64,000 bases of DNA, from the NCBI RefSeq assembly GCF_030686945.1, contig NW_027122708.1, positions 5,610,248 to 5,674,247 of the forward strand, in the 5' to 3' direction. A model generated the notes under the pieces. The model was not told the origin of the DNA and made no database searches. It was given only the letters and a program-made list of their open reading frames with translations. Position numbers and translations under genes: made by a program. The stretch comes from Centruroides vittatus (lineage: Eukaryota). Below, piece by piece: positions 12,471 to 62,660 of the stretch; within the stretch, counting starts at the first letter, position 1; each line of letters begins with the position of its first letter.

Positions 12471-15400
12471 TTCGGACACATTAAAATACTTCTACCCAAT
12501 CTACAGAAATTTATATCTTCGAAATTCCATTTTTACGGCAAATAAAACGGGTTGAGTAATTTTGTACGTATGACTAAAGAATAATCGGGAAATTTAAATC
12601 AAATTTGAAATGATTCATAGCCGTTCTATCCCTGACCCGAAGGCCTAAATAAGTTGCAGAGGATCAACAAGTCAATAGCAAACAGCTTCTAGGTTAAACT
12701 TAAATATCAATTGGAACTAACGGGGGATCTTGTCATTTAATTCGTAGATAGTTTAACGAACTGGCTTATGCTCTGTTTATTACACAAATAATTATTCTTT
12801 AAGTTATTACTTAAAGCGAAATACGCTATTAATCGTAGAAAGATTTCCAATATTACGACACGAAATGATTTGTAACTTGTTCCATTTATCGCTGTTAGCT
12901 TAATTTTGAAATTTTTAACAAAGTAGAACAATAGAAGAATGTTTTATGCTGTAGAATAAATATGAAGATAGGTTAAGCGAGTAATCTTTGTATCGCAGAG
13001 GAAGTAGATTACTCACGTATACATGGATATGTATATGTGTCTATGTACTGTACACCTATGTATATGTATCACGTATGCACTCACGTATCCATGTATATGT
13101 AAATATCTGAAACGAGAAAAATAGTTAAACATGCCATAAATTTGTCACAGATATTTATTTGCACCGATGAACGTTTAATATTCAATGTTTGACTTGGGCA
13201 TAAACACTTTCTGAATCGTAAATTATTCGCTTTGTTGCTATGCAATTCAATCTCGGAAAAACTGGCCAACAGACAAATAAGATCAGAATGCAAAACAGAA
13301 ATTTATATTTAAACTTTGCAAATATAACTTATATATACATATATTTCTTTTCTTTTCTCGTAAATATGGTGCGAGCGCATCTCATAATAGAGTTTTGTTC
13401 TAGATAATAGAATGCTTAAGATGCTCATCACAAAAATTAGGAGTTATTCATTGAATTATTTGACAATTAATGCCCACAAAGAAAAATATACACTGTGTAT
13501 ATACATTTTTACAGTATGTCTATATCATTATACTGTTTTACTGTTACTTGATAAAACTAGATCGAAATCGAATATTTTTTTAAATAAAAAAGTATTATTA
13601 TATATATTAAAAATAAATATTAGATATAATATAAAAAATACAGTATATATTTAATCGATTAATTAAGTGCTTAAAATATTCTAATATTCTGGAATGAATC
13701 TTCGATCGTTATCAAACTAGTGAATTAAACATGTCAAGAATTTATATTTAAGATTATTTTCTTCTAAATATTATAAATTCTTGGGATTTTTTTATTATTA
13801 TTATAAATTGAATTCTTGTGTTATTACGTTAAGATTAAACGAATTGCGAATAATTTATAATGAAATTTTTGATCTAAAAAATATATTTTTGTAAAAGGTA
13901 TTGAGACAGAGATCATTGAGCTTAATGAAATAAATTATTCTACTTTGATACATCCCGATGGGATTTTACTTGAAAATAACGAGTTGCCATTAAATTTATT
14001 TGGAATGTTGAGGGAATATTTTTGTAGATTTGTTGAATTGTATGCAAAATATAACAACACACAAAATAATAATATCTCAATTGTTTGTTAATATAAAATC
14101 TGATATTTTCATCACTTTGGACTTTTGATAACCCAATTTATTCACTTCACTTATTCAAACGGTATTCAATAACAGATTATTAAAAGGAACAATGCACCAT
14201 AGAATCTAAATGTAGTCCTAAGCTATTATTTTATAGGAAAACTATCAAGAAATCAATAGCACATTACTTATTTATAAATATCAAATTATCAATTGAATCG
14301 ATGAAATTTATCGTTTTTACATTTTACTTTATTTTTAACTTAGCATTTTTAATAGGTTTGTTATTGAGAGAAAAAGATAGATCTTGTTATAAATTCCCTT
14401 GATCTATCTTAATTAAATTCTTTCACTGCCTTTATTCTTTGTCTAGAAAGGAAAACAGATTAGAAATGCACTATTATGTCAGCTCTTGCAATATCTAGTC
14501 TCCCATTTCTCTATAATTTAGTAGTAAATTAAAATTAAAAAGGAGGCAGTGTCTGTGGAAGTAGCCGAATAAGAAATAGACAGACAGAGATCATTGAGCT
14601 TAATGCAATAAATTATTCTACTTTGATACATCCTGATGAGATTTTACTTGAAAATAACGAGTTGCCATTAAATTTATTTGGAAATAAACTTTCTGGGTTT
14701 GAGCCTGTGGTAAAAATCGCATTCTCTTTGTTCATTTCTTTCATTGGGATTTATTCTATTGGATAATTACTCGTTTATCGTCTACCTATTTTTATTGCTG
14801 ACATAAACCGTGGAATTCTTTATCGTATGATTGATAGCATATGCATTAACTGTCAATTACTCAAACGGAATTACAGTTCTTTGCATACGTTTTTACTTTT
14901 GTCCCTTTGCAATGACAGATAATTGTCATTAAGGATTTACATTTAACAGAAGCCGAAAACGCTCAAATTTTTTTATCACCATTAAGGAATAATGTTACTA
15001 ATAGTTGGAACTGAAAAACAGTTGAAAATTTAATTTACGTTTGACGTCATTTTCTAATTTTACTTATCATTCGGCAACGAAGACGGGCGAAAAGAATCAG
15101 TAATAAAATTTTCGTTTATAATAAATACAGCGTGATGTCATAGGAAACGATTACCACTTTTTATGAATAGTTTTTTCGTTATTTTGCTGATCTAAAGGCA
15201 TTTATTTTGAAAAGGTTGAAAGTTGTTTCGCTTTCGATATCATCTAGTAATGCTCCACTGAAGTTAATCAATATAAAAAGCAATTTTCTCTTAAATTACA
15301 AAATAAATAAACATATATGTACAGCGTACTTGCAAGTTCGACGTAATTAAAATACGAGTTTTTTAATGGTTTCTACACTAAATTTGATTAAAACGTTGAA

Positions 15401-30400: not shown

Positions 30401-33400
30401 TGTACTGTACGTTTCAAAAAAATGTACAGATGGTCAAATTAATATTTCGAATAAATTAGTGTACGATTGCTATTTAAAATAAGCATAAATAATTTTAGGT
30501 CTGTTAGATTAACAGAATAGAGTCAAGATGAAATGAAATTAAAGCATAAGCAAGTAGATATAGGCATCAAATTTCTCTACTAAATATGATTTTGCACTTT
30601 TCTTTATAGTGTATAAGGTATTTAGCATCAGTTACACATGTATACGTATTCGATTTAACAATTAAATTTTTCACAGAGCAATTATAATTGTTTAAATATT
30701 GAATAATTATTAGAATTATATTTTATTTATTGATTTGTAATAGCAAGATCTAAAAAAGTACAAATAGGGCGAGTATATTTAGAATGATGTAGGCTATATA
30801 CAAAAGGGGTGAAGGAATAGAACTGTTTATGGATAAAGTGGACGCGACTGACGTCACTGTGATAATTTTCTGTTATTGATTGTTATGATTATAGAAGTTT
30901 ACCCCAAATGGGGGCAAGTTGGAAAAAATATACTTTGTTGCTGAATATGTTGTATTTTCAATTCTTTGAATCTAGTCCTATTTTTATACTTTATTTATGT
31001 AAATTTTATCAAAGTGCATATAATTTTTTAAATGTTTGAAAATGAATTACACCAACTTATCCGTCTCTTTCTTATAAAAATTGGGAAGATTATAGATTTT
31101 CTGACTGAATAAATGACTATAATGGGCATATCAGCTATTTGTTGAAAGTTTTCTGCTTGTAAATATTTCGAAAATCTTAATTTATATATAAATTTAAGCT
31201 TGTAAAAGTATAAATATAATATCTAACTACATCTACAGGAACATGGAAACGTTTAACTTTAAATTAATTTTGTCGAAAAGTTTTAATTTCAATGAAATAT
31301 TTTGAAATATTTTACAATTCAATACTATATAAATAAATTTTTCAATATTATAATATAATTAAAATTTACTTAAATTCACTAAACAAAATAAATTTGATGA
31401 GGTTTTAAATAACTTTTCAAAAATCTTCTCTTATCTTAAAATAAAATATGCTTAATAATTATAAAACTGTGCGTAATAAATAAAAAGATTGCATTTTCTA
31501 TGCAATTTTTAAATATTTTTTTTTTTTGCTATATTTTATTATAAGCAAAGTCGAAACATTTCACATTAAAAACACTCTCACTGTTTACATCTTGATGATG
31601 GGACAAAACATAACAATAGCGAATATTTTCCATTAACCAATCGTCAAAGAGCAGAAAATTATCACAGTGACGTCAGTCGCGTCCACTTTATTTCATTTGA
31701 AACCGGAAATTGCTTGTCCCGAACCAAACGTTTCGACTGTTGCCAGCTCGTATTCGAATTTTCAAATTAGTGAGGTGGATGAGCTGGTTGCAGCTATTGG
31801 TCAAATCCTATCTGACATAATAAAATCACTTTCACTTCTTTTAAAGTTGATTTTATGCGCTTTCTCTCTTAAAATTCGATTATAGAAATAAATAATATAA
31901 ATAAATAGAATTCTGTTTTTTTTTTAAATTTCTGGTACGATTTTTTTTTTAAATCGGACTAAATAAAATTTTTTATTTCGATTTTTTTTTGTTTGCGCTT
32001 CTGAAAATAACCAGCGAAAGGAGATTGGCATCATCAAAATTCCACATTCGATTGGCTTTTCCTTCTCTTCCTCTTTATCTCCTGTTCATACTCGCTTTTT
32101 AGCATAATAAAATTACTGTAAACTACGAGAGAAATATTTTTCCTAGTGCAATATGGGATTGTTTCCTCCAGTTTCTATGTCAACGGAAATGGCAAGTTGT
32201 ATATATCTACCTGTAATATAAACAGGCACGACGTGAATATCAAAAGCAGTCATAAATTCGAGTTTGTCGAAATTTTTCATGAATTGTTGTAGGTGCTTCA
32301 ATATCTTCTCGTATTATTTGTATTTGTTTCATTGGAAGGATGATTAATAAAGTTTTATTCTTTAAAATTCGATATTAAAGCTGAATTTAATTTGATTAGA
32401 ATAACCATGGATAAAGTTTGAATGTTTTTTTTGGAAATATATTATTAAAATTTTAACTAAATAAAACTTTAATGTAGAAAAATTATATATTCTTAGATTT
32501 ATGATTAAGCATAATATTATAGCTCCATCTGAATTACAGCCTATTCTAATTCATTAGAAGAAACAGCCATAACTCTTACAGGCCATGTACAATATTCTTT
32601 ATTCTTAAGTAATAAGGTTGAAATATAAATTATTTTTGCCATTAAATATGGAAAAAAATCACATATGGGACACGAATAAATTTAAATAATTAATAAAATA
32701 TAAAAATCAAAGTATAAATTTATATTACATTTTAAAATTTTGCTTCATTTCTTAATGATTATAAATGTAATTTTTTTATTTTCTTGTTAAGAAAATTGTA
32801 TTGATATGCTACAGTGAAATAATGATGATTGAGATTTATGTTCTATGTTAAAAAAACCGATCAAATAATTTCGAAAATTCATTTATTTTCAAATGAATAT
32901 CTAATATTGAAACAAATTTGTGTAAAAAATATGATCTTTATTACTTTTAGAAATTTTCCAACTGTGTGCCATGTTTGAAGAAACAACAATAATAAATTAT
33001 GTAGTTATTAACATTATAATCCGCTTAAAATGTCTGCAAAAGTCCCGTAAAATTAAAATTTCACTTTTAAATTTCTTATTTAAAAGTAAGTCTATTGTAA
33101 AATTACAATAACTATTTAACTGTAAGCAATTAAAACTTTTAAAAAAATTTACGCCAGGAAGAATGGATTTTGTTAACAGAATAAGAGTGAATAGGCGCAT
33201 ATTTATTGTAGTAAAAGGCAAAATTAACAGCATTTAATTTAAACATTATAAAAAAATAAATCGGCTAAAGATAATTTATTCATTAAACGTCGAAACATTA
33301 ATCTTTTAAATCATACAGTTAGATAGATTCCGAGTATTTTACGAATATCTGAACAGTGCAAAAAAAGATTTATATATAATAGACATCCACGGCGATAAGA

Positions 33401-34465: not shown

Positions 34466-34722
34466 CGGGGAACTTTTTCCCTAGATACTAGACGGCGACG
34501 GGGAAATTTCTTTTCCTTACGTTCGAGATGGCCGTGTTTCCGGTAATCTCGAATCAGATTATCGAGTGATAATCTGGAAGCAGATTAACAATGGATAATC
34601 TCGAAGTAGAATACCGAGTGATCTAAACGTTAGGGGCGTACCCGTACTATCTGTCGCATTATGCAAATTAATAAATTTCCCCGTCGCTGTCTAGTATCTA
34701 GGGAAAAAATTTCCCTAGTAGG
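34466..34722. mobile_element. MITE/foldback-like element with ~32-bp terminal inverted repeats.
   Basis: TIR ccctagatactagacGgcgacggggaaatttc (34484-34515) pairs with gaaatttccccgtcgcTgtctagtatctaggg (34672-34703) at 1 mismatch. Each TIR contains the palindrome gggaaatttccc-like core. The interior has two ~30-bp direct repeats (ggtaatctcgaatcagattatcgagtgat / ggataatctcgaagtagaataccgagtgat). Confidence 0.5.
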
Positions 34723-34767
34723 AATTGACTTAAAAATTTTTTTTTAATATATTACTTGTTTAATTTA

Positions 34768-35095
34768 AAATATATGCTCTTCACCTCAAATTAGTACTGT
34801 AGTGTCTTACTCCTGTACATTATACTTTCCTGCTAGCAATAGCCTGTGCCGGTTATCTAACTGTTTTCCGGGAGAATTTTTGAATTGAAATAACGTGACT
34901 TTCGGTTTGTATCGGAATTTTATGTATAGATATATAGTTAATCGAGGCTATTGCCGATAAGGTTTCCATATATGATCTCGGATTTCATATATCTAACTCA
35001 GTTCTTGAGATTAAGGAAAGACAGACAAACAGACGGATGACTGGGAATTTATAGGTCTACAATTTTTTTCAAATTACAACCCAAAAATCGAACAC
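34768..35095 (+). mobile_element. Family-C interspersed element, copy 1 (plus orientation).
   Basis: ...cctgctagcaatagcctgtgccggttatctaactg...atagttaatcgaggc...aatttataggtctacaatttttttcaaattacaaccc is shared with 61.65-61.79 kb and 62.04-62.17 kb. Confidence 0.65.
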
Positions 35096-35477
35096 GATAC
35101 TTATAAATCTAACTTCAAAATCTAGATAATTATTAATCATCTTTACTTTTGAATGAAACAAACTATAAACGCGAAAAATCATTTCCTAGAAAAATTCGAT
35201 TTTGGTTTAGTTTATATTCATGTTTTCAGACGTCCAAACTCCATTTAAATGGAATTTGAAATAGTGCCAGAAGTATACATCAATCAAGCATTAGCCAAAC
35301 ATTAACTTATATTAATACTTTTATATCTACCAAATAAACAAATTCGCTAAGATATTCACATTCGGGCAATGACACGCGTTTAATTTTATAATGAATCAAT
35401 AGAATACAGTATTAGCTTTTTCTCCTCTCATATTTTTCCGACGTATTGCATTTATCTCTCGTGCGTAACATTTTATT

Positions 35478-35790
35478 GGGCTGCAATTTGAAAAACTTGT
35501 AGACCTATAAATTCCCACTGCCGTCCGTCCGTCTGACTGTCTTTCCTTAATCTCGAGAAATAAGTTACATAGATGAAATGCGAGACCAGATATGGTAATC
35601 TTAGGGGCTTGAAGCCCGGATGAACTATATACGAACTTTCGATACAAATCAAAAGTTACGTTATTCCAATTCAAAAACTTTTCCCGAAAGCTGTTAGATG
35701 ACCGGCACGACTTTATTGTTAAAGGAAAAGTACGATGTACAGGGGCAAGCCACTACTAATTTGAGGTGGAGAGCATATATATTCAGTTTG
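35478..35790 (-). mobile_element. Family-C element, copy 2, in inverted orientation relative to copy 1 (spacer ~380 bp).
   Basis: gctgcaatttgaaaaacttgtagacctataaattccca...ttaaggaaag...ccggcacgactttattg...gtggagagcatatat is the reverse complement of the 34768-35095 copy, checked segment by segment. Confidence 0.65.
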
Positions 35791-36039
35791 TTTGTTTATA
35801 TAGTGTCGTGTCTATTGCTATATTCGAAGATCATATGGGGGAATTTTATTAAATTCGCATTTAAAAATTTTTTTATCCGTTCAACTCTGCTCTCCCAAAT
35901 CCTGAGTGGTCCACTGCTACAGAATATAGACAAAATATTGTAAATTGAGTCAATTAATTTTAAACTGTGCTGTTAACTACTAATTTAAATCAGTAGCTTA
36001 AAATAAAATAAAAGCAGCAGAACTGGAATTGAAGAGGTG

Positions 36040-37800
36040 GATAATAAATTGGGGCCCACAGGCTGCTCGCTTTCTCTCGAAGTGCGTTATATCGAGTCAC
36101 CAGGGTAGAATATATCCGAGTACATAGACGTCCGCATCAGTGGCGTAACTAGCATGGGTGACACCCGGTGCAGATATCGTGGTGTCACCTTTTTAAACTC
36201 TTTTATAAAACACTGTTGAATTGTAATATCTTCGCACTCGAGCAACTTGAACGCTATATTGAATATGCGATGTCGCGACCTATGAGTTTAGATTTATAGA
36301 ATAAATCATAGTAAGATTTTCAGCTGGTGCGAGCTCTCGTGGCGTCTCCTCATAGCGAAGAAACTGTCATGGGAGGCGAGCCGTTGACCTTTTGTTTTTT
36401 ATTTTTTTTTTATTTTTTAGGTACAGGCCTACCGGGTGTCACCCCTACACGAGTGACACCCGGGGCGGGCCGCCCCCTCAGCTACGCCTCTGGTCCGCAT
36501 AGGGAAAAAACGGGCACTTTCCCCCCTCCCTGGGATCGAATAAAAGAATTCCACAAATTATAATTGTAAAGGTCATGACATGTAACCTTATACCCTCGAC
36601 CAGGACTATTCTATAATCTACTCGTGGGATAGGGGGGCGTGTACTAGCCGCTGGAGGTACGGGTGAACTTTTAGTGAAGCTTGATAATTCTGTTCTGAGT
36701 GAATTGAAAACCCATAAGAAGCCGAAATATGACAATTTTAAAGAAGTGGTTATTTGTGAATAGACTTTCCTTGATTTTAATTGTGTGTTTATTAATAATT
36801 GCTGGGATTGAGTCCAATCCAGGCCCTTTCCCTCGATCTCCACAACAAATACGTCAAGAAGATATGCAAAGAAGGGGACGAGGCAGACCTTGCAAGAATA
36901 AGCTTCAAGAAAAAGAAAGGCAATTGAGCGATACATCTAGTGAACATTATTATCAGTTAGAGGATGTTTTTAATAAAAATAGTCCTGGGACCTCGAGAGC
37001 TACGAAAATTTACGACTACTTCGAAACTTCAAGAGATCTAGGGCCACAAGTTCAGGAAGAGTCACAATTTACATTGAAAGCAATATACGAGCTAATTCAA
37101 GATAAGTTCTCTCTTCTTCATACTGAACTACAAGGAATTAGAGCAGAAGTCATTGCTTTGAAAGAAGAAAATAAATATTTGAATGGAGAATTGTCAAAAT
37201 TATCCCAAAAAGTAGAAGAATTAGAGGAAATATCTAATAAGAATTGCCAATTGAAAGGTATGTTAGAATTTGAAATAGACCAGCTAGCTAACGTGAGAAA
37301 TAATAATAACATTATAGTTTTAAACTTTCCGTTCAACTCGACCGATCATGTAAAAGAAATTAATCAGTTTATAAAAAAGGACTTGGGAATAATTAATAGT
37401 CACATAAAAGGAGTGGTTAGATTAACCAAAAGTGAAATCAATCCCATAGTGAAAATATTATTGGGGTCCGTATATGATAGGAATCTGATTATTAAAGAAT
37501 TCTGGAAAAAGAAAGGCGACTTCAATAATAAAGTGAAGGAAAAGATAATAGTTACTTCGGATTTATGCATGAGATCCAGAATGAGAAGAAAAAAATTATT
37601 GGCAATAATTAAAGAAGAAAAACACAATGGGAATAGAATTATTATAAAAGATGATTATTATATTAAAGACAACATAAAATATACATATGATATTAATCTA
37701 GATAAAGTAGTCCAATTGAATGATTTTTCGAGAAGAATTGATCGTCATCTTAGTTCTGATTATGGCTAGATAGAAGAAATAATAGTTAGTTTGAATGTTT
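36040..37800 (+). mobile_element. Truncated or solo non-LTR (L1-clade-like) element: GC-rich 5' region plus ORF1, with no ORF2/RT downstream.
   Basis: A GC-rich block, 36040-36720, rich in inverted repeats (GTGACACCCGG / CCGGGTGTCAC), lies immediately 5' of ORF1. The sequence after the ORF1 stop (37770-39700) is AT-rich and ORF-free. No RT or endonuclease ORF occurs anywhere in the window. Confidence 0.55.
36729..37769 (+). CDS. Non-LTR retrotransposon ORF1 protein of L1 type (Transposase_22-like). It has an N-terminal 2A-like peptide and an AT-hook.
   Basis: 346-aa ORF starting at a real ATG. Residues 21-33 LLIIAGIESNPGP (nt 36789-36827) resemble the viral 2A / retrotransposon 2A-like motif (LLKLAGDVESNPG|P). 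RRGRGRPCKNK (GRGRP at nt 36876-36890) is an AT-hook. A heptad coiled coil (LHTELQGIRAEVIALKEENKYLNGELSKLSQKVEELEE) is followed by an RRM-like plus C-terminal domain. That region aligns from memory to human L1 ORF1p: NIIVLNFPF ~ NLRLIGVPE, GVVRLTKSE ~ HIIVRFTKVE, KIIVTSDLCMRSRMRRKK..IIKEE....RIIIKD.YYIKDNIKY ~ IRLTADLSAETLQARREWGPIFNILKEKNFQPRISYPAKLSFISEGEIKYF. Confidence 0.85.
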   Translation: MTILKKWLFVNRLSLILIVCLLIIAGIESNPGPFPRSPQQIRQEDMQRRGRGRPCKNKLQEKERQLSDTSSEHYYQLEDVFNKNSPGTSRATKIYDYFETSRDLGPQVQEESQFTLKAIYELIQDKFSLLHTELQGIRAEVIALKEENKYLNGELSKLSQKVEELEEISNKNCQLKGMLEFEIDQLANVRNNNNIIVLNFPFNSTDHVKEINQFIKKDLGIINSHIKGVVRLTKSEINPIVKILLGSVYDRNLIIKEFWKKKGDFNNKVKEKIIVTSDLCMRSRMRRKKLLAIIKEEKHNGNRIIIKDDYYIKDNIKYTYDINLDKVVQLNDFSRRIDRHLSSDYG

Positions 37801-48786: not shown

Positions 48787-49024
48787 TTGTTTGTTTGTTT
48801 AGTTAAGTTATGGCAACGCAACACTTGGACGATCTGCCTAGAGTAAATGCCTTCCGACAGGTCTTTTTAAGGTTAACTGGCCCCTATTCAGGCGTTACAG
48901 ACGCGAAGAAAACCCGGAAAACGCCACGTGGCCTGAAAACTCCAGACTGTCCTGGCGAGGCGCGAACCCATGACGGAACTCCCAGTGTTTAGGGAACGGA
49001 ACCGCTTGGCCACAGGTGGGCCGT
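48787..49024 (-). mobile_element. tRNA-derived SINE (family B) flanked by perfect 12-bp target-site duplications.
   Basis: The minus-strand reading begins with a tRNA-like head GGCCCACCTGTGGCCAAGCGGTT...GGGTTCGCGCC (A- and B-box-like). It ends in a (CAAA)n tail, seen as ttgtttgtttgttt on the plus strand. The direct repeat aaacattaaagt occurs at 48775-48786 and again at 49025-49036, immediately flanking the element. Confidence 0.8.
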
Positions 49025-49172: not shown

Positions 49173-52089
49173 CATTGCAGCCTCTTTAAAATGATGAAGA
49201 TATTCTTCATTTTAAAATGAGAAAATAGATTTTCACACATTTACAATAATATATACAGTATATATAGTAATATAGTAGTAATAATATTTTCACACAGATT
49301 AAACACACATTTACAGCAACGCGAACGCGTAACTTCTTTAATTATGCCATTTATATGCATATCTATATTTAGTTTGAAAATGTTTATTGGTTTCTTCGTC
49401 GATAGATTTATATCATTATAATTGAGTTATCTAAATACAGTTAATGGCTTTCGTTTATCCGCATCTATCCAATCACTTTACGTTAGTCAAAATAGAAAAG
49501 ATTAAAATGCTTATTTTTTATCATCCATTTATTATATTGAAATAAAATATCGTCCATTTAATTAATCTTTAAGGATAATCTGGATAAAATTTTCATTTAC
49601 AAAATGGAAAAGTGTGTCCGGAATGAAACTGAATTTTTAATTACAGATTTAAAAGCCATCGATGATTGTTAAAAATCGAATTAGCGGATCTAATCTGGCA
49701 ATTTTTGGAAGGTGAGTAAAATTCAAAACAGCAAACACACGCCATTTACAAAGTTTATTTCGGACAGAAATGTAACGGGGCAGGAAATTGGGTGACGTCA
49801 CAAGCGCTCTTGGTAATTATATCGCCTCTATAAATGTAAGCAACTTAGCAAAATTCGGCCAATCAGAAATATGATTGGATAGATTCAATACGAAAATCGG
49901 CATTATTAATTAAATTAAAACAAGTGCCTAATACATTTTTAATTGTCTTAAATCACTGAACAGATAGTAGCAAATTATTTAATTAGAAAGCTATATGTAA
50001 TCGTTATATATATTTTGCTCACCGTTCTTTAATAAAAAATAAATATAGTAATAATCAAATTTTTTGATTACCTGTTTTTATTCTAATGACAAAGATCATA
50101 AAAAGTAAAATGTTGGGCATATTTATAAGTATTGTATTATCATATGCATTATATACTGTATATGGTACATATAATACAGATTATAGATATGATAACACAA
50201 AAAAACCTGTAAACTATCAAAATGATTATCAAATTTTCTTGTTACCTTATAAATATGTAATGTAATAAACACGTATTTTTTATTCCGAGTAAAGGAATAG
50301 TCTATTTCCATAAAATTCCATAGTTTATGCATCAATAACTTTTATAAAATATTGTAGCTTAACAGTTATACAGTCCTAAAAACTTCGCTAAAATCAGAAG
50401 TAACATGCAAAAACCTGTGCAGATAAATACAATAGAAATTATATTACATAAAAAAATAAAAGATTAAAGAGGATTGTGACTACTCTGATGCACGGATTTT
50501 AATTTAATTAAATAACATCAAACAGAATTTAAAGTCAGGCAAATAAATTTCTAAGAAGAAAAAATAAATCTAGTTCTTCAAAGCACTAATCTTTGGAGGC
50601 AGAATTTAGAATTTTGTTAATTTTAAACAGAAAAAACAAAAGGAAGATTATATGCTCTTTTCCACGTTAATGACGGAGTCTAGAATCTATTTTTCCTCTA
50701 TTGAAAATTTGATAATCATTTTGATAGTTTACGGGGAGTTTTTTTATTTCGATTAATATTAGGCGTCTTGAATTTATTTAACTTAACAGAAGAATATGAA
50801 TGTAACATATTACTGATGGCTGTAATGAAGATGAAAGCCAGACACATAATGCACCTTCTTTAGATAAATAACAAAAGATACACAGAAAACTTGACCGCAA
50901 AGACAGCAAATGATCTAAACGCAAAACCCCTCAAAATATTCTGTTAAATTTGTGTTTTTCCCCCTAGTATAAACAAACTGTGTAGTTTTATGCGTATTTG
51001 TTTACTAAAGTACTTGTGTTTCTAAAAATGAAAACATACTTATACTTGAAGAATTAGTTGAAATACCAAATACTACAATACCATTGTAGTGTACTAGTAT
51101 AAAATACTATTAAAAATAATGGCATTTCATTACTTTGTTAGTATTGTGATCTTTTGGGTCATACAAAATATCATCGAAACAGATACGCACTAATTTATCT
51201 CATATTAAATCAGCCATGTTGAAATGATGTGGAAAAGCTATAGGCTTACTTTACATACATTTTTTTAAATAGAAAAAATTCGTTAAATTTTTATTTTTCG
51301 ATGAAACTATTAATAAATAATCATTTTTTATTAAGAATAAAGAGTTTTGCAATTTTGTATTTATACATAGATAAGAAGATATTAACTAAAAAAAAACTAT
51401 ATATAAAACGAAATTTATCTCAAACGAATTTCATTTTTGAAAAGATGTCTTAGAAATACTAATTTTTAGATATATAATTATGTATATGAACTTATGCATA
51501 TAAATAAATGTATATAAACAAGTCATTTGTCGTAGATTTATACATTGATGACTCCCTCATTTCATCATGATGACGAAATCTTCAATAGTAAATCTCGGAT
51601 CTCCTTTTTAATAGAATGAAATATATTTTGTTTCATATTTGTATTTATATTTTTGTTCGTTATTGTTATAATTATTCCACTCAAATAATTCCTATAACAA
51701 CGTCTAAAAAAATATATTTTCTATATCATTATCAATATTTATAATTGAAAATAAGATTTTTGAATTAACCAGAAAAGCTTTAATTAAAAGATCTCCGTGG
51801 ACCATTCAAAATTTTGTTTTTGAATAAAATACTGTGGCATGCCCTGAAATAACCTATCTTTTAGATGGGTCATTTCTATTATATCTATCATCATAGAGAT
51901 TTATATTTTAGTATTTATTATTAATTTTATTACTTCCTTTTACCTTCTCGGCTGTTAAAACAACAGAAGGAAAATATTGTAATCGGTTAAATTTTGACTC
52001 TTTGAATTTTTTGCATTTCTCGAATGTCTTAAGGTCTCCCGATTAAAAAAAAACGGAATTCTGTATGTGTCGGCTTGTATTTTGCTCTA

Positions 52090-52300: not shown

Positions 52301-53524
52301 TTCCAAAATAAGGCTTTTGCCTGTTATAATAATTATATATATATATATATAATATATAGAAAAATAAAAAAGCCATGCCAGGAAAGTCGTGCAAGAGCCC
52401 TTAATCTTTTAAATTAATAATTATAGTAATAAAAAAAAATAAAGTTTCAACTTATTAAAACATCATAGTGGATAATGGAACACTTTTTTCCATTATTTAA
52501 TTTAAAAATAATGGAATCTGATAATAATATTCAAAATGTAGGGATGAAATCGATTTCAAATTATCTCTGGGAGTAGTATGGTAATTTTAAGCTACGATTT
52601 CAAAATACCTCCTCAAAGAACTTATCATTTGTACCGGTACGTTCCATCAGAATAAAACATGGAGCGAATACATGTAAAATTCCGATCAATCAGCCCGCTT
52701 TTTCAGCCAGATTCTGATTGGAACTTGAGATTATGCCATATTGAGGACAATTATTGTCTCATCCATATTGGATAATGTCACTTTGTTTCATAATGTCTGC
52801 TCCAGTGTTGTAGAATACAAGGCCGTCGAGAGGGGAAGCGGGGATTTTTCTCCGGACTCTGAAAAAACTTAGGGGTCCATAGTGGCTCTTACCCCGTAAA
52901 TTAATATTATTTTTGATTAAAAAATATAATTGTTTAAGACTGATTTTTATTAATAAAGGAACTTTCTACATATTCGTTTAATTTGTTCAAAAAAGATATA
53001 ATAAAAAGGACCCGCTTTATCCCGTGGCCTGGTAGAGCATTAAACCCTGGTAAGATGATCCACCTCGAAACCTGGGACACTGAGAGATTAAGTTTTATTA
53101 TGGCAATAATCCTTAACAGATGGATTTACGTATACAATACATATGTAAATGACAATAAGTAGGGCCTAATTGGAGTGTGCCATGTAATACAATTAAAATT
53201 TTTGTGACTTTTTTATTTTTCAAGAGTTGAGGCTAGCTTTCAATATTGTGTTTCATTCAATACAGTTTTATTCAATAAAACGTACCACGAGTTGTAAGTA
53301 TAAAAGAAAAAAAAATTATCATTTTAGCTAAATCGGGAAGAACAACGCTCAGGATTTATTTGAAGACCGGGGTTTAATCAACGAAATTTGTATCTACTGA
53401 AGGCTTCGATTTATTATTTACAGCGATTAAACTCTCGGATTTCACGTTTCTTTATTTAACAAATTCTAAAATTTTAATAGTAGACTATAAATTTTTCTTA
53501 TTTTTAAATCTAAAACACGCTTTG

Positions 53525-55444
53525 ATGCTTAAAATTTGTTTTCTTTCAGGCGATATTACAGAGGAAGAGGATGTTACTAATCAAACTCTGACGTCTATGA
53601 TGACGTTCGACGTCATCAATCGTAGCGTATGGATTGTGGACGTAGAGTGGCAAACATCCAAAGATAATTCGACGTGGTGGACTACCTGGAACGAAAACAA
53701 TGATACCATTTATCTAAGCGTCACCAACTGTACCAATCAAAGCGAATCTTGTAATGGTACCAACATAGTGCCCGAGAGTCCTCCTTTCAACTTATGGCAG
53801 ACCATAGTTATTGCTGTTCTGATAGGAATATGCTCCCTCCTAACCATAGCGGGTAATATATTGGTTCTTTTGGCGTTTGTAGTGGAACGAACAATACGTC
53901 AACCCAGCAACTATTTCATTGCTTCTTTAGCCCTCTCCGATCTTTTTATTGGAATCATCTCCATGCCGTTTTACGCCGTATACGTATTAGTCGGAAGGTG
54001 GGATCTAGGTCCTATTACCTGCGACTTGTGGTTAGCAATCGATCATACCGTATGTCTGGTTTCCATCTACACTGTATTATTAATCACTATCGATAGATAT
54101 TGTTCGGTCAAGATCGCTACTAAGTATAGAGCCTGGAGAACCAATACCAAAGTGTGGTGGATGGTAATCACTACTTGGATTGTTCCGTTTTTAGTCTTTT
54201 TCATTACAGTTATGGGTTGGGAACATTTTATTGGTTATCGTGATTTAGCTCCCGGTGAATGTGCGGTGCAATTTCTTAAAGATCCCATCTTTAATACTTC
54301 TTTAATATTTGGATACTTTTATCTCACTCTCATTGTACTCTTCGTCCTTTACGCGGGAATATACAAAACGGCCAGCGACATGCAAAAGAGATCCGAAGCC
54401 AAACAGAAAAAAGTGCAATCTTTGGTCTCCATGAATAAAGAAAAATCAGAGGAGAAATCCGTTTTGACAACATCAAAATCGTTCGGCAAAGAAAAAAGAA
54501 AACTTGAATCAAACAATGTAACAAATTCGAATCAAAGAAACACAGATTCGACAGAAGGGCAAAATACAGAAAAAAAATTCGAGACGTCATTTACTGAAGA
54601 AAAGAAAGAAAATTCCGATCATTCGAGCAGCCCCGTTTTTGATTCTGACGAAGAAAATGCTGCCCCTCAAGCAAATAAAAAAGAAAAGCGAAAATCCGCA
54701 GGTAGATCGATAGAAAACTTAAAATCAATTCCTAAAATACAACCCATTCCTCCCCCTCCTCCCCTGCCTCCTCCTCAACCACTCTGTCAATCTTTAAGCA
54801 GATCGTCAAGAAATAACGAAGAGAGCAAAATAAAATTACTACGTGCAGAAATGGACGAGAGAAAATTTAAAGATAACGAAAGACCTGGTAATCTGAACGT
54901 GAGTTACGTAGATCAAGAATGCCCTTCGACGTACACACAACTGCCAACTCTCTTACATTTCGAAGGAGGAGAAGTAAAAGATATAAATGCATTACGTAAC
55001 TCGGGGGAAAGCATTAAAGCTCGAGACGAAATGCAACCCATTGTGGACCCCGAACGTTCGGCATTCTTAACGATTTCAAAAGAATTATCATCTTGTTCCA
55101 AAAAAGTATCTTCTCTTCGACAGAAATTTAAAAAAGGAAGAAGCAAACTAAAAGGAGAAAAAAGACAAAAGTCTAAATCAGAAAACAGAGCCAGAAAAGC
55201 TTTGAGAACAATATCATTTATTCTGGGAGCATTCGTGTTATGCTGGACTCCCTATCACATTTTAGCCGTTGTAGAAGGTTTCTGTTCTGTTTCGTCCGGC
55301 TGTGTCAACCATCATTTCTTTTATTTTACTTATTTTCTTTGTTACGCCAACAGCCCTATTAACCCATTCTGTTACGCATTGGCCAATCTACAGTTTAAGA
55401 AGACTTTTTATCGTATTTTAAGAGGCGATTTTCACAGAAAATAA
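53525..55444 (+). CDS. Class-A GPCR of muscarinic-acetylcholine / biogenic-amine type. At least nt 53550-55444 are coding.
   Basis: 640-aa continuous ORF. Helix motifs recalled from mAChR sequences: TM2 [24 protein letters not shown]3 [12 protein letters not shown]...IDRYCSV (Asp3.32 and DRY present), a ~240-aa Lys/Ser/Pro-rich third intracellular loop, TM6 [16 protein letters not shown]7 [20 protein letters not shown] (compare M2 NPACYALCNATFKKTF). N-glycosylation sites sit in the N-terminus. The first in-frame ATG is at 53525, but a strong acceptor tttgttttctttcag ends at 53549, so the true 5' end is probably spliced. Stop TAA is at 55442-55444. Confidence 0.9.
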
Positions 55445-58938: not shown

Positions 58939-59057
58939 TCGACGATTTTATTTTTTTATTTTATTTCGTTTTCTTCGTTTTTATTATTTTTTAATTATTT
59001 TTAATTATTCTTAATCATTAATTTCAATTAAATTAAATTAACACGGTGAAGAAGGAG

Positions 59058-59630
59058 TTAATAATACAAATTGATGTTGATGTGTTCAGATAATAAATTA
59101 ATTTCAAAATAATGACGCCTTCCTTCTTGATGTCTTCCACTTTCTCTGCGTTCACTCTCTCTCTCTTCACGTTCTCTGTGTTCACTCTCTCTCTCTTCAC
59201 GTTCCCTGCGTTCATTCTCTCTCTCTTCACGTTCCCTGCGTGCATTCTCTCTCTCTTCACGTTCTCTGTGTTCATTCTCTCTCTCTTCACGTTCCCTGCG
59301 TTCATTCTCTCTCTCTTCACGTTCTCTGTGTTCATTCTCTCTCTCTTCACGTTCCCTGCGTTCACTCTCTCTCTCGTCACGTTCTCTGTGTTCATTTTCT
59401 CTCTCTTCACGTTCTCTGCGTTCACGCTCTCTTTGATTTTGATTATTTTCTCTTATCGTTCTTCTAATTTCTGCTTCTTCTTCTCTTTCTCTAATACGCC
59501 TTAATCGCATTCTTTCTCGATTCTTTCGTAGGCGTTCTTCTCTTTTTTGTTGTGTTTCGTTAGCACGCCTTTCTCGTTGTTTCACTCTATTTATTTCCCT
59601 TTCTCTTTCTCTTTTTTCTAAGATGTCCAT
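59058..59630 (-). CDS. Candidate Arg/Glu-rich repeat-protein ORF (190 aa). Its C-terminal half is encoded by the 30-bp minisatellite.
   Basis: ATG at 59630-59628 sits in an aaaaATGG context. The unique N-terminal 65 aa (MDILEKREREREINRVKQRERRANETQQKREERLRKNRERMRLRRIRE...) are already RE-rich before the tandem repeats begin. The RE-rich coding potential therefore extends beyond the repeats. Further RE/RD-rich ORF pieces continue downstream on the same strand (58938-58741). Confidence 0.35.
   Translation of the reverse strand: MDILEKREREREINRVKQRERRANETQQKREERLRKNRERMRLRRIREREEEAEIRRTIRENNQNQRERERREREERENEHRERDERESERREREERENEHREREERENERREREERENEHREREERENARREREERENERREREERESEHREREERESERRESGRHQEGRRHYFEINLLSEHININLYY
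59131..59440. repeat. 30-bp minisatellite, about 10 units (ttcactctctctctcttcacgttctctgtg and variants).
   Basis: A direct tandem periodicity of 30 nt is read off the sequence from 59151 onward, with unit variants ttcattctct.../gttccctgcg. On the minus strand every unit encodes a 10-aa E/R-rich repeat (REREERENEH type). Confidence 0.95.
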
Positions 59631-60129
59631 TTTTTCCTGTTAGTATTAATGAAATTTCACAATTGATTAGTATTGATAGTTTGGAATATTTTTTAAATCA
59701 AAAAGCTGTATCTAAGCAATTATAAGAATTATACTAAAATTTTAAATTTTACTACTAATACTAAAATAATACTAAAATTATAATTAATACTATAAATTTA
59801 GAACCTAAGCTTTATCAGTCTAAATACTGTAGAGTACATACTCGATAAAATATATTTATCTTTAATAGATTACATATTATAATCAATTTTAAGCCGATAA
59901 TTTTGTGACTAAGTTATTATTCTAATATTTATACCATACGTTTATATTAATAGAAATCCATGATGCAGTAAAACTCCATTATTTCGAAACTCAAGGGACC
60001 AAAAAACACGACTTCGAATTATCCGAACTTCTTTTCGAATTGAATTTTTTTGTAATTTTTGAATAAAATCATGACATTATCTATCTATATATATAATTGA
60101 GACGAGTTGATAATAATAACAATAATAAT

Positions 60130-61589: not shown

Positions 61590-62200
61590 TATTTATTGTG
61601 ACATCGTTACAATGCCGGGCTGCAACTTTTCGTCACAATGTTCTCAATTCCTTTAGTCCTGTACTTTATAGTTTTCCTGTTAGCAATAGAGTCGTGCCGG
61701 TTATCTATCTAACTCCGTTCAGGGAAAAATTTTGGATAGATGTAACGTGACTTCCTGTTTGCATCGTAAGTTCATATATAGTTAATCTGGGCTTCCAGCT
61801 CCCAGGGGCGGATCTACATAGGGACTAATAGGGCTTAAGCCCTGGGCCCCAAGTGTCAAGGGCCCACAAAAATTGAATTATTACTATAAATTTTTAATAC
61901 TTTTTCATTAACAATGAGCACTTATCGATATAGTGTCACTCAACACCATTTCATAAATAAATATATTTCAACTCTGATTTTTATGTTATTAAAAATGAAT
62001 TTTTTTAAACCGCAATTTAAAGAATCTTAATTGCTCCTAACCATATCTAGTCTCGACTTTCGTCTATTCTCGAGATTAAGAAAGGACGGACAGAAACACA
62101 GATAGACAAGAGATATCAGTCGGAATTTATAGGTCTACAATTTTTTCAAATTGCAGCCCGATAATTTATTTTATAAACGCGATATTTACGAGAACATACT
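61590..62200 (+). mobile_element. Family-C element, longer copy. It includes an extra ~240-bp internal segment relative to the 34.8-kb copies and abuts a family-B SINE.
   Basis: It shares both the head (tcctgtactttatagttttcctgttagcaatagagtcgtgccggttatcta...) and the tail (...gaatttataggtctacaattttttcaaattgcagccc) with the 34.8-kb copies. The internal segment gggcggatctacatagggactaatagggcttaagccctgggcc...(61805-62040) has no counterpart in them. Confidence 0.55.
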
Positions 62201-62435
62201 TACCTCAAAGTTTGTACAGTTTGTTGCAAAAATGTAAACACCTTATTATCACATAAAGGTAATTATTATCGCATTTTTACAAGAATTTTTTTTATTCAAA
62301 GAAATCATGTGAAGTCTTTCGGACGTTAAGGTTAACAACTTCGATCACGTGCGTATTAATAGTAGATCGGTATTAATTAGTAGTCGTTGATCATTCTGTC
62401 TTCCGGGAGGTCAACGACTTCTTTTGGCGAGCCCA

Positions 62436-62660
62436 CCAGTGACCAAACGGTCTTCGTACCCTGAACACTGGGCGTTCAGTCGTAGGTTCGCGCCTCGTTC
62501 TGACGGGATAGCCACGTGGAGTTTTCCGGATTTTCTCCACGTCTGTAATGCCTAAAGGCCAGTTTCTCTTAAAAAGACATCCCGGAAGGCATCCGCCCTA
62601 GGCAGATCACCCAAGCGTTGCGTTGCCATAACTTAACTAACAAACTACTTTTGGTCGAAT
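62436..62660 (+). mobile_element. SINE family B copy (tRNA-like head plus conserved body).
   Basis: It shares ggcgagcccacc..gggcgttcagtcgtaggttcgcgcc and the body ggagttttccggattttctcc..cgtctgtaatgcctaaaggccagtt..cttaaaaagac..cccgg.aggcatc..ccctaggcagatc.cccaagcgttgcgttgccataacttaactaa with the 48.8-kb copy in reverse complement. Confidence 0.65.

Follow-up and report, generated by a model that had tools for sequence, protein, structure and literature searches.

A decayed inverted pair of interspersed elements in an apparent chelicerate, probably a single foldback-type insertion

Two copies of an interspersed element lying in opposite orientation a few hundred base pairs apart raise two questions, namely whether a transcript running through both would make a hairpin good enough to yield small RNAs, and whether the pair arrived by one insertion or by two. 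The pair considered here lies in an AT-rich stretch of 64 kb (∼30% GC), hereafter the window, and was flagged in a first-pass annotation as a candidate hairpin-RNA locus. Its basic description there is sound: two opposite-strand copies of one ∼320-bp element are present, with boundaries no more than 6 nt from those first drawn and a spacer of 382 bp (Table 1). The match between the two arms is far above chance (BLAST E ∼1e-62 to 1e-67; nhmmer E ∼1e-108), and the conserved termini of the two units face each other across the loop. Arm A, spacer and arm B together form a composite of ∼1.03 kb (34762-35788, 1027 nt). The spacer itself is unique, since a low-stringency BLAST search against the 64-kb window returned no significant match, and it matches no repeat, protein domain or RNA family. 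The locus is, we argue, a real yet ordinary decayed transposon-derived inverted repeat, probably the product of one foldback-type insertion.

Table 1. Features of the inverted pair, of its solo relative and of the surrounding window (positions are those of the window).
Feature	Position	Strand	Basis or description
Left candidate target-site duplication, TGTTT	34757-34761	+	exact direct repeat at the edge of the composite
Arm A, family unit of ∼325 bp	34762-35090	+	repeat finding, BLAST, nhmmer; outer end AATTTAAAATATATGCTCTTCACC..., inner end the conserved terminus of the family, ...GGAATTTATAGGTCTACAATTTTTTTCAAATTACAACCCAAAAA
(GTCY)n-like microsatellite core of arm A	35015-35034	-	GTCTGTTTGTCTGTCTTTCC on the minus strand
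Spacer or loop, 382 bp	35091-35472	unstranded	AT-rich (28% GC)
Arm B, second unit, inverted	35473-35788	-	repeat finding, BLAST, nhmmer; conserved terminus TTATTGGGCTGCAATTTGAAAAA (plus strand), pointing inward to arm A
(GTCY)n microsatellite core of arm B	35523-35542	+	GTCCGTCCGTCTGACTGTCT
Right candidate target-site duplication, TGTTT	35789-35793	+	continues into a (GTTT)n-like stretch
Copy C, solo relative	61616-62160	+	∼270-bp body and conserved terminus in common with the arms
Left end of copy C	61595-61638		8-bp hairpin ATTGTGAC/GTCACAAT
Extra central block of copy C, ∼230 bp	61803-62032		begins CAGGGGCGGATCTACATAGGG, contains palindrome AGGGCTTAAGCCCT
Direct repeat GCTCC flanking that block	61798-61802, 62033-62037		
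MITE-like foldback	34467-34715		inverted arms 34467-34512 / 34670-34715
346-aa ORF	36729-37769	+	central coiled coil
Perfect 40-nt inverted repeat	30833-30872 / 31652-31691		ATAAAGTGGACGCGACTGACGTCACTGTGATAATTTTCTG
Inverted repeat of ∼40-43 nt	50199-50238 / 50703-50745		91% matching, bounding ∼550 bp
Direct repeats of 102 bp	13904-14005 / 14582-14683		97% identical, starts 678 bp apart
Another interspersed family, two copies	48793-49021 / 62431-62645	+ / -	77% identical
Muscarinic-acetylcholine-receptor-type GPCR ORF	53522-55444	+	intronless, 7tm_1, long third intracellular loop
Low-complexity repeat	59036-59640		overlapping ORFs on both strands

The element belongs to a non-coding, interspersed family with a (GTCY)n core that has three copies in the window, the two arms and the solo copy C. 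All three end at one point in a conserved terminus (...GGAATTTATAGGTCTACAA-TTTTTTCAAATTGCAGCCC(R)ATAA); this conserved end carries CGGGCTGCAATTT, and its 19-mer GGAATTTATAGGTCTACAA is invariant and is found in the window only at the three copies. Because copy C shares with the arms both its body and this exact inner terminus, each inner end of the pair is a canonical element end and not an arbitrary duplication breakpoint. Outside relatives were sought with the same 19-mer, and the 11 matching loci in JGI metagenome contigs and 185k prokaryotic genomes were set aside as chance, as they share a seed of 19-22 nt only.

The opposite ends of the copies are of two kinds. An A-type unit carries ATATATGCTCT at its outer end, and the arms have in common an outer module of ∼45 nt (ATATATGCTCTYCACCTCAAATTAGTA...) that is 91% identical between A and B, differs from the first ∼42 nt of copy C and cannot be aligned to them; neither this module nor any further family fragment was found elsewhere in the window. 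A 13-nt inverted repeat, CGGGCTGCAACTT / AAATTGCAGCCCG, frames copy C; it matches at 12/13 positions (0/200 shuffles did as well), and its exact 10-mer occurs nowhere else in the 64 kb. At the left end of copy C an 8-bp hairpin surrounds the inverted terminal motif CGGGCTGCAACTT and is reminiscent of the terminal hairpins of Helitron/HINE elements, whereas the outer ends of the arms form no convincing hairpin. The extra central block of copy C, which has no significant second copy in the window, represents either the variable centre of the family or an element nested in copy C that made a 5-bp duplication on insertion. Only ∼270 bp from copy C lies one of the two copies of the other interspersed family listed in Table 1.

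What kind of element this is can be narrowed by its ends and by its lack of coding capacity. Terminal inverted repeats, as in TIR transposons and MITEs, are present both in the composite (its ∼320-bp inverted arms) and in copy C (13 nt). No ORF in the arms has a Pfam match, and a 118-aa ORF across arm B has neither a Pfam match nor a counterpart in arm A. An origin as a SINE was considered and dropped because Rfam (E up to 10) found no structured-RNA family at the locus and ARAGORN found 0 tRNA genes and no tRNA-like head there; with no tRNA-, 5S- or 7SL-derived head, the unit also has no tail and no duplication of its own around each copy.

In layout the family resembles the DINE-1/HINE elements. 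Hallmarks of these elements, which lack an ORF, are subterminal inverted repeats of 13 bp (12-15 bp), the 5' copy adjoined by a partial inverted repeat, a 5' block with a GTCY-rich microsatellite, a variable centre, and a short stem-loop or palindrome close to the 3' end. They insert at TT or other T-rich targets without duplication (PMC2374699, PMC4067079); in a mite they have been reported as the HINE-Mo families (PMC4067079). Our family likewise consists of a non-coding unit with a GTCY-type microsatellite ∼50 nt from a conserved end bearing a 13-nt repeat motif, a partial inverted repeat (CAATTT/AAATTG) nested beside that terminal motif, a length-variable centre and T-rich flanks. In copy C the other end is made up of the inverted terminal motif and the adjacent hairpin, so that copy C, read on the minus strand, fits most of the hallmarks. 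The microsatellite is present in all three copies, and 7/9 of the window's matches to three GTCY units (at most 1 mismatch) fall within them, against 0.24 expected.

The likeness does not extend to the sequence. A DINE-1 profile made from the published consensus alignment matches only the microsatellite (E 0.026 / 0.33 / 11), that of arm B being the best match in the window (E=0.026) and that of arm A the second, and Smith-Waterman comparison with DINE-1 in the other orientation gave z of at most 2.6. No significant similarity to the conserved DINE-1 core of >90 bp was found; an apparent likeness to that core (GATCTC...GAGATTAAG) proved not significant against the published consensus and comes down to the microsatellite. 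The conserved motifs of the element are also absent from the supplementary sequences of the HINE paper. Further differences are that no inverted repeat, terminal or subterminal, exceeded the level of shuffles in arms A and B, and that the composite has a repeat like a target-site duplication (TSD), whereas rolling-circle elements make none. Both arms do have T-runs ahead of the conserved end, albeit in a genome of 70% AT, and no duplication was found around single units; nor was a Rep/helicase domain found among the window ORFs that were scanned. Since the profile reaches the microsatellite only and the HINE supplementary sequences contain none of the motifs, we call the family DINE-1/HINE-like in layout without assigning it to that group.

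The three copies are about equally far apart. Over 257 shared columns A and B are 78% identical, A and C 73.5%, and B and C 74.7%, and the relation is near star-like, with private differences of 25 in A, 22 in B and 34 in C. The arms had been called highly similar at first, and this is not so: BLAST aligns them at 77% identity with 18 gap columns, and global alignment, with gap runs collapsed, at 79.9% with 63 differences. The changes between them amount to 40 transitions, 24 transversions and 6 indel events, and the longest exact run, of 21 nt, is the sole one of at least 19 nt. Two tests of unevenness aimed at separating in-situ duplication from separate transposition are non-discriminating: the density of differences does not vary significantly from part to part of the arms (chi-square p=0.33), and the termini are conserved at 87% against 77.5% in the interior, which is a trend (Fisher p=0.08). 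A spread of 63 differences with no significant heterogeneity suggests neutral decay, and because the divergence between the arms is about the same as that to the solo copy, their pairing does not appear to have been maintained by compensation or gene conversion. Judged by these alignments, the arms have decayed to the degree expected of neutral DNA and show no sign of selection. After insertion each arm would have changed on its own and free of constraint, by substitution and by indel, to reach ∼9-10% private change.

Flanking duplications offer a more direct view of how the pair arrived. A loose search (30-nt flanks, 1 mismatch) stayed at chance level for every model. Under a strict abutting test, TGTTT flanks the A-spacer-B composite (P=0.002 from 3000 random placements with pre-set boundaries), and with 1-3 nt of boundary slack the flanking repeat becomes TTGTTT or TTGTTTA (P ∼0.009-0.011); this repeat was spotted by eye, post hoc, after the looser negative test, and with ∼4 models and 3 slack settings in play its corrected significance is roughly 0.01-0.04. 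The same test found no abutting direct repeat of at least 4 nt at arm A alone, at arm B alone or at copy C. As the flanking TGTTT is direct, it is not a part or an extension of the inverted arms. When the composite and one TGTTT are removed, the flanks join as ...cttgttt^gtttatatag, and the predicted empty site, free of the whole 1.03 kb, reads ...CTTGTTTGTTTATATAG. On its right side the composite borders low-complexity, (GTTT)n-like sequence. Its exact boundaries are soft, as only 5 of the 8 outermost nucleotides of the inverted repeat match.

The comparison of target sites arm by arm that the first-pass annotation proposed, as a way to decide between one event and two, thus showed no independent TSD on either arm and a direct repeat around the pair as a whole. 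If the unit were a rolling-circle element of the DINE-1/HINE type, no TSD would be expected for each unit, and the lack of one at the arms would then be uninformative. Of the two histories that had been left side by side, independent insertions or a single foldback-type transposition, the second nonetheless gains support, because the repeat frames the composite and neither arm by itself has one.

With modest confidence, then, we read the locus as a decayed, non-autonomous foldback-type (long-inverted-repeat) element of ∼1.03 kb that was inserted as one piece. The composite would have inserted once, generating a target-site duplication of 5-7 bp (TGTTT/TTGTTTA), and the element would be selfish or junk DNA with no demonstrable function for its host. 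This single insertion is favoured over two neighbouring ones by the flanking repeat, by the outer module private to the arms, by the higher identity of A to B (78%) than of either to C (74-75%), and by the placement of the copies, as an inverted pair this close is expected 1.8% of the time when 3 copies are placed randomly in 64 kb. The tendency of the termini to be better conserved than the interior (p=0.08) counts against it, being in the direction expected of separately transposed copies.

It is possible, though on balance doubtful, that two units of the same subfamily were inserted separately at neighbouring sites, either independently or by a local hop, and that TGTTT is a coincidence in AT-rich, microsatellite-like DNA. 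The unit does occur solo, as copy C, and the pair has a canonical terminus at each inner end, while the near-star relation of the copies and the trend to better-conserved termini fit such a history as well. The surroundings are a transposon cluster, with a MITE-like foldback ending 46 bp before the pair and a retroelement-like ORF starting ∼940 bp beyond it, and a HINE-like family would leave no TSD at each unit (PMC4067079). Two insertions would, however, leave a direct repeat that abuts the composite at P ∼0.002-0.01 as an accident, would rely on a placement that chance yields 1.8% of the time, and would have to bring together the only two bearers of the 45-nt outer module in the window.

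Improbable, and the least likely of the three origins, is that a lone insertion underwent a local segmental duplication in inverted orientation, for instance through template switching during replication, that took in the element and ∼45 nt of host flank: the homology of A and B does run ∼45 nt past what either shares with copy C, and the differences are spread uniformly (p=0.33), as for decay after duplication in situ, but such a duplication would need both of its inner breakpoints to lie no more than ∼3 nt from the canonical terminus, the mechanism makes no abutting direct repeat, and the outer module (40-45 nt) is about as long as the 5' segment of copy C (42 nt), which suggests an alternative element end and not host flank.

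A single foldback-type insertion invites comparison with foldback-type elements and long-TIR MITEs. These, too, lack coding capacity and combine long inverted arms and a short non-coding loop with a short direct repeat in the flanks, and they occur in multiple related copies, which here holds for the unit, the composite being known from one site. The arms of the classical Drosophila FB elements consist of tandem subrepeats, whereas TRF found no tandem array inside arm A or arm B.

A second comparison is with inverted Alu pairs (IRAlus), in which two ∼300-bp repeats lie in opposite orientation a few hundred base pairs apart and are ∼80% complementary. Such pairs result from two independent retrotranspositions, so that every copy has a target-site duplication and an A-tail to itself, and their transcription and editing are documented in primate transcripts. 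Like them, the present pair would form long imperfect dsRNA only if it lay inside a transcript, and may be regarded as a by-product of transposon accumulation; it differs in that no duplication or tail is detectable at either arm and the candidate duplication flanks the whole pair. In quality the predicted hairpin is comparable to that of an inverted Alu pair.

The candidate status of the locus had rested on the expectation that any read-through transcript would fold into a perfect dsRNA stem of ∼300 bp. The long hairpin is there, at least in prediction, and its perfection is not. The 1027-nt read-through RNA has a predicted minimum free energy (MFE) of -386.3 kcal/mol, compared with -199.4 +/- 8.6 across 40 dinucleotide shuffles (z ∼-22), -194 with arm B turned into a direct repeat and -636 with the arms idealised as perfect, so the hairpin is real, yet it is stabilised only ∼43% as much as a perfect stem would be. 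The arms are only 77-80% identical, with 6 indels among their differences, and the predicted stem is broken into 35 helices; the longest is 26 bp, including G:U pairs, and three measure 21-26 bp. In the fold 265/329 nucleotides of arm A pair with arm B (16 as G:U), but 21-nt windows are fully stacked in 10/309 cases and fully Watson-Crick in 1/309.

Hairpin RNA (hpRNA) loci are recognised by four criteria, namely a discrete primary transcript, siRNAs that depend on Dcr-2, derepression in dcr-2 mutants and full complementarity of the siRNAs to targets, and the young ones in Drosophila have near-perfect arms (PMC10317233). Our locus shares with them the architecture of an inverted repeat with a loop, and a transposable element (TE) origin of the arms has a precedent in hp-ODox2, whose arms derive from a BS2/Jockey element (PMC10317233). 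It differs from them in having arms of 78-80% identity. An inverted repeat able to form an extended duplex is present, if a poor one in the predicted fold; near-perfect arms giving perfect duplexes of ∼21 nt are not. The only candidate siRNA target in the window is copy C, whose longest exact matches to the arms (25 nt with A, 19 nt with B) both fall in the conserved terminus.

Whether the locus functions in this way is a matter separate from its origin, as such a function would be compatible with any of the histories weighed above. We consider it very improbable that a transcript over both arms is diced to endogenous siRNAs that silence the element family or some other target, since the long hairpin predicted well above chance, its three helices of 21-26 bp and the precedent of TE-derived arms are set against arms that show neither maintained pairing nor concerted evolution (A and B being barely closer to each other than to C), a single fully Watson-Crick window, no identifiable gene or domain within ∼10 kb as a supplier of the transcript and no Rfam match. 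The quality of the stem speaks against an efficient siRNA source, and a hairpin-RNA function is unsupported. Inside a longer transcript the RNA would, on the modelled fold, be a poor Dicer substrate at best and possibly an ADAR substrate. There is accordingly little expectation that a decayed foldback is still transcribed, in this chelicerate-grade arthropod, as an hpRNA-like source of endo-siRNAs or as a source for ADAR editing, and, within that slim prospect, small RNAs directed against its own (GTCY)n family would come from the surviving helices of 21-26 bp. If this were true, it would be a hairpin locus born of a TE outside the insects, in a lineage with no characterised hpRNAs.

The suggestion that the pair is also recombinogenic and fragile as DNA appears weak in the light of limits published for Alu inverted repeats. 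Instability of inverted repeats in duplex DNA drops ∼300-fold as the spacer grows from 12 bp to 100 bp and is abolished at 75% homology, and widely spaced, divergent repeats interact only inside long single-stranded regions (PMC10164571). With its 382-bp spacer and 78-80% identity, the locus should be near-inert in normal duplex DNA, and its fragility should be low.

Several other features of the window were noted. The adjoining MITE-like foldback noticed in the first pass is borne out, with inverted arms of 46 nt that are 91% complementary and hold a 33-nt-spaced subrepeat (AGAYGRCGACGGGGAANTTT), and with three 26-bp tandem units between them; no abutting TSD of at least 4 nt and no other copy in the window were found for it. 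The perfect 40-nt inverted repeat, its arms 780 bp apart and much better matched than those of the flagged pair, is a candidate young TIR element, though again no abutting duplication of at least 4 nt was found. The inverted repeat at 50199-50745 is probably a further MITE, and the two 102-bp direct repeats may have arisen by a recent tandem duplication or may bound a small LTR-like element.

A Pfam search of 20 ORFs within ∼10 kb of the locus yielded nothing beyond coiled-coil noise, which came from the 346-aa ORF that starts ∼940 bp past arm B. Near its N-terminus this ORF has a near-canonical 2A-like 'ribosome-skipping' motif (…LLIIAGIESNPGPFP…); its Pfam matches are limited to a sub-threshold coiled coil, and a PDB sequence search gave no match. 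The pattern of a 2A-like motif with a coiled coil is reported for ORF1 of some non-LTR retrotransposons. The one clear gene in the window is the muscarinic-type receptor, which comes closest to chelicerate receptors (from horseshoe crabs, a scorpion, ticks and mites), at only 51-67% identity, and so points to an arthropod host, probably a chelicerate. At 58-60 kb, where both the GC and the AT skew are locally strong, lies the low-complexity repeat, whose minus strand gives an E/R-rich reading ('REREERENE…').

Animal genomes contain many inverted transposon pairs and foldback-type MITEs, and one more such locus, itself old and decayed, matters little alone. It may serve as a worked example of how a test of flanking duplications can tell one insertion from two. 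The DINE-1/HINE-like layout of the family, with its GTCY microsatellite, 13-nt terminal motif and variable centre, may aid repeat annotators working on this apparent chelicerate. And if small-RNA data showed dicing, the locus would become a TE-derived source of hairpin RNA in a lineage whose hpRNAs are uncharacterised.
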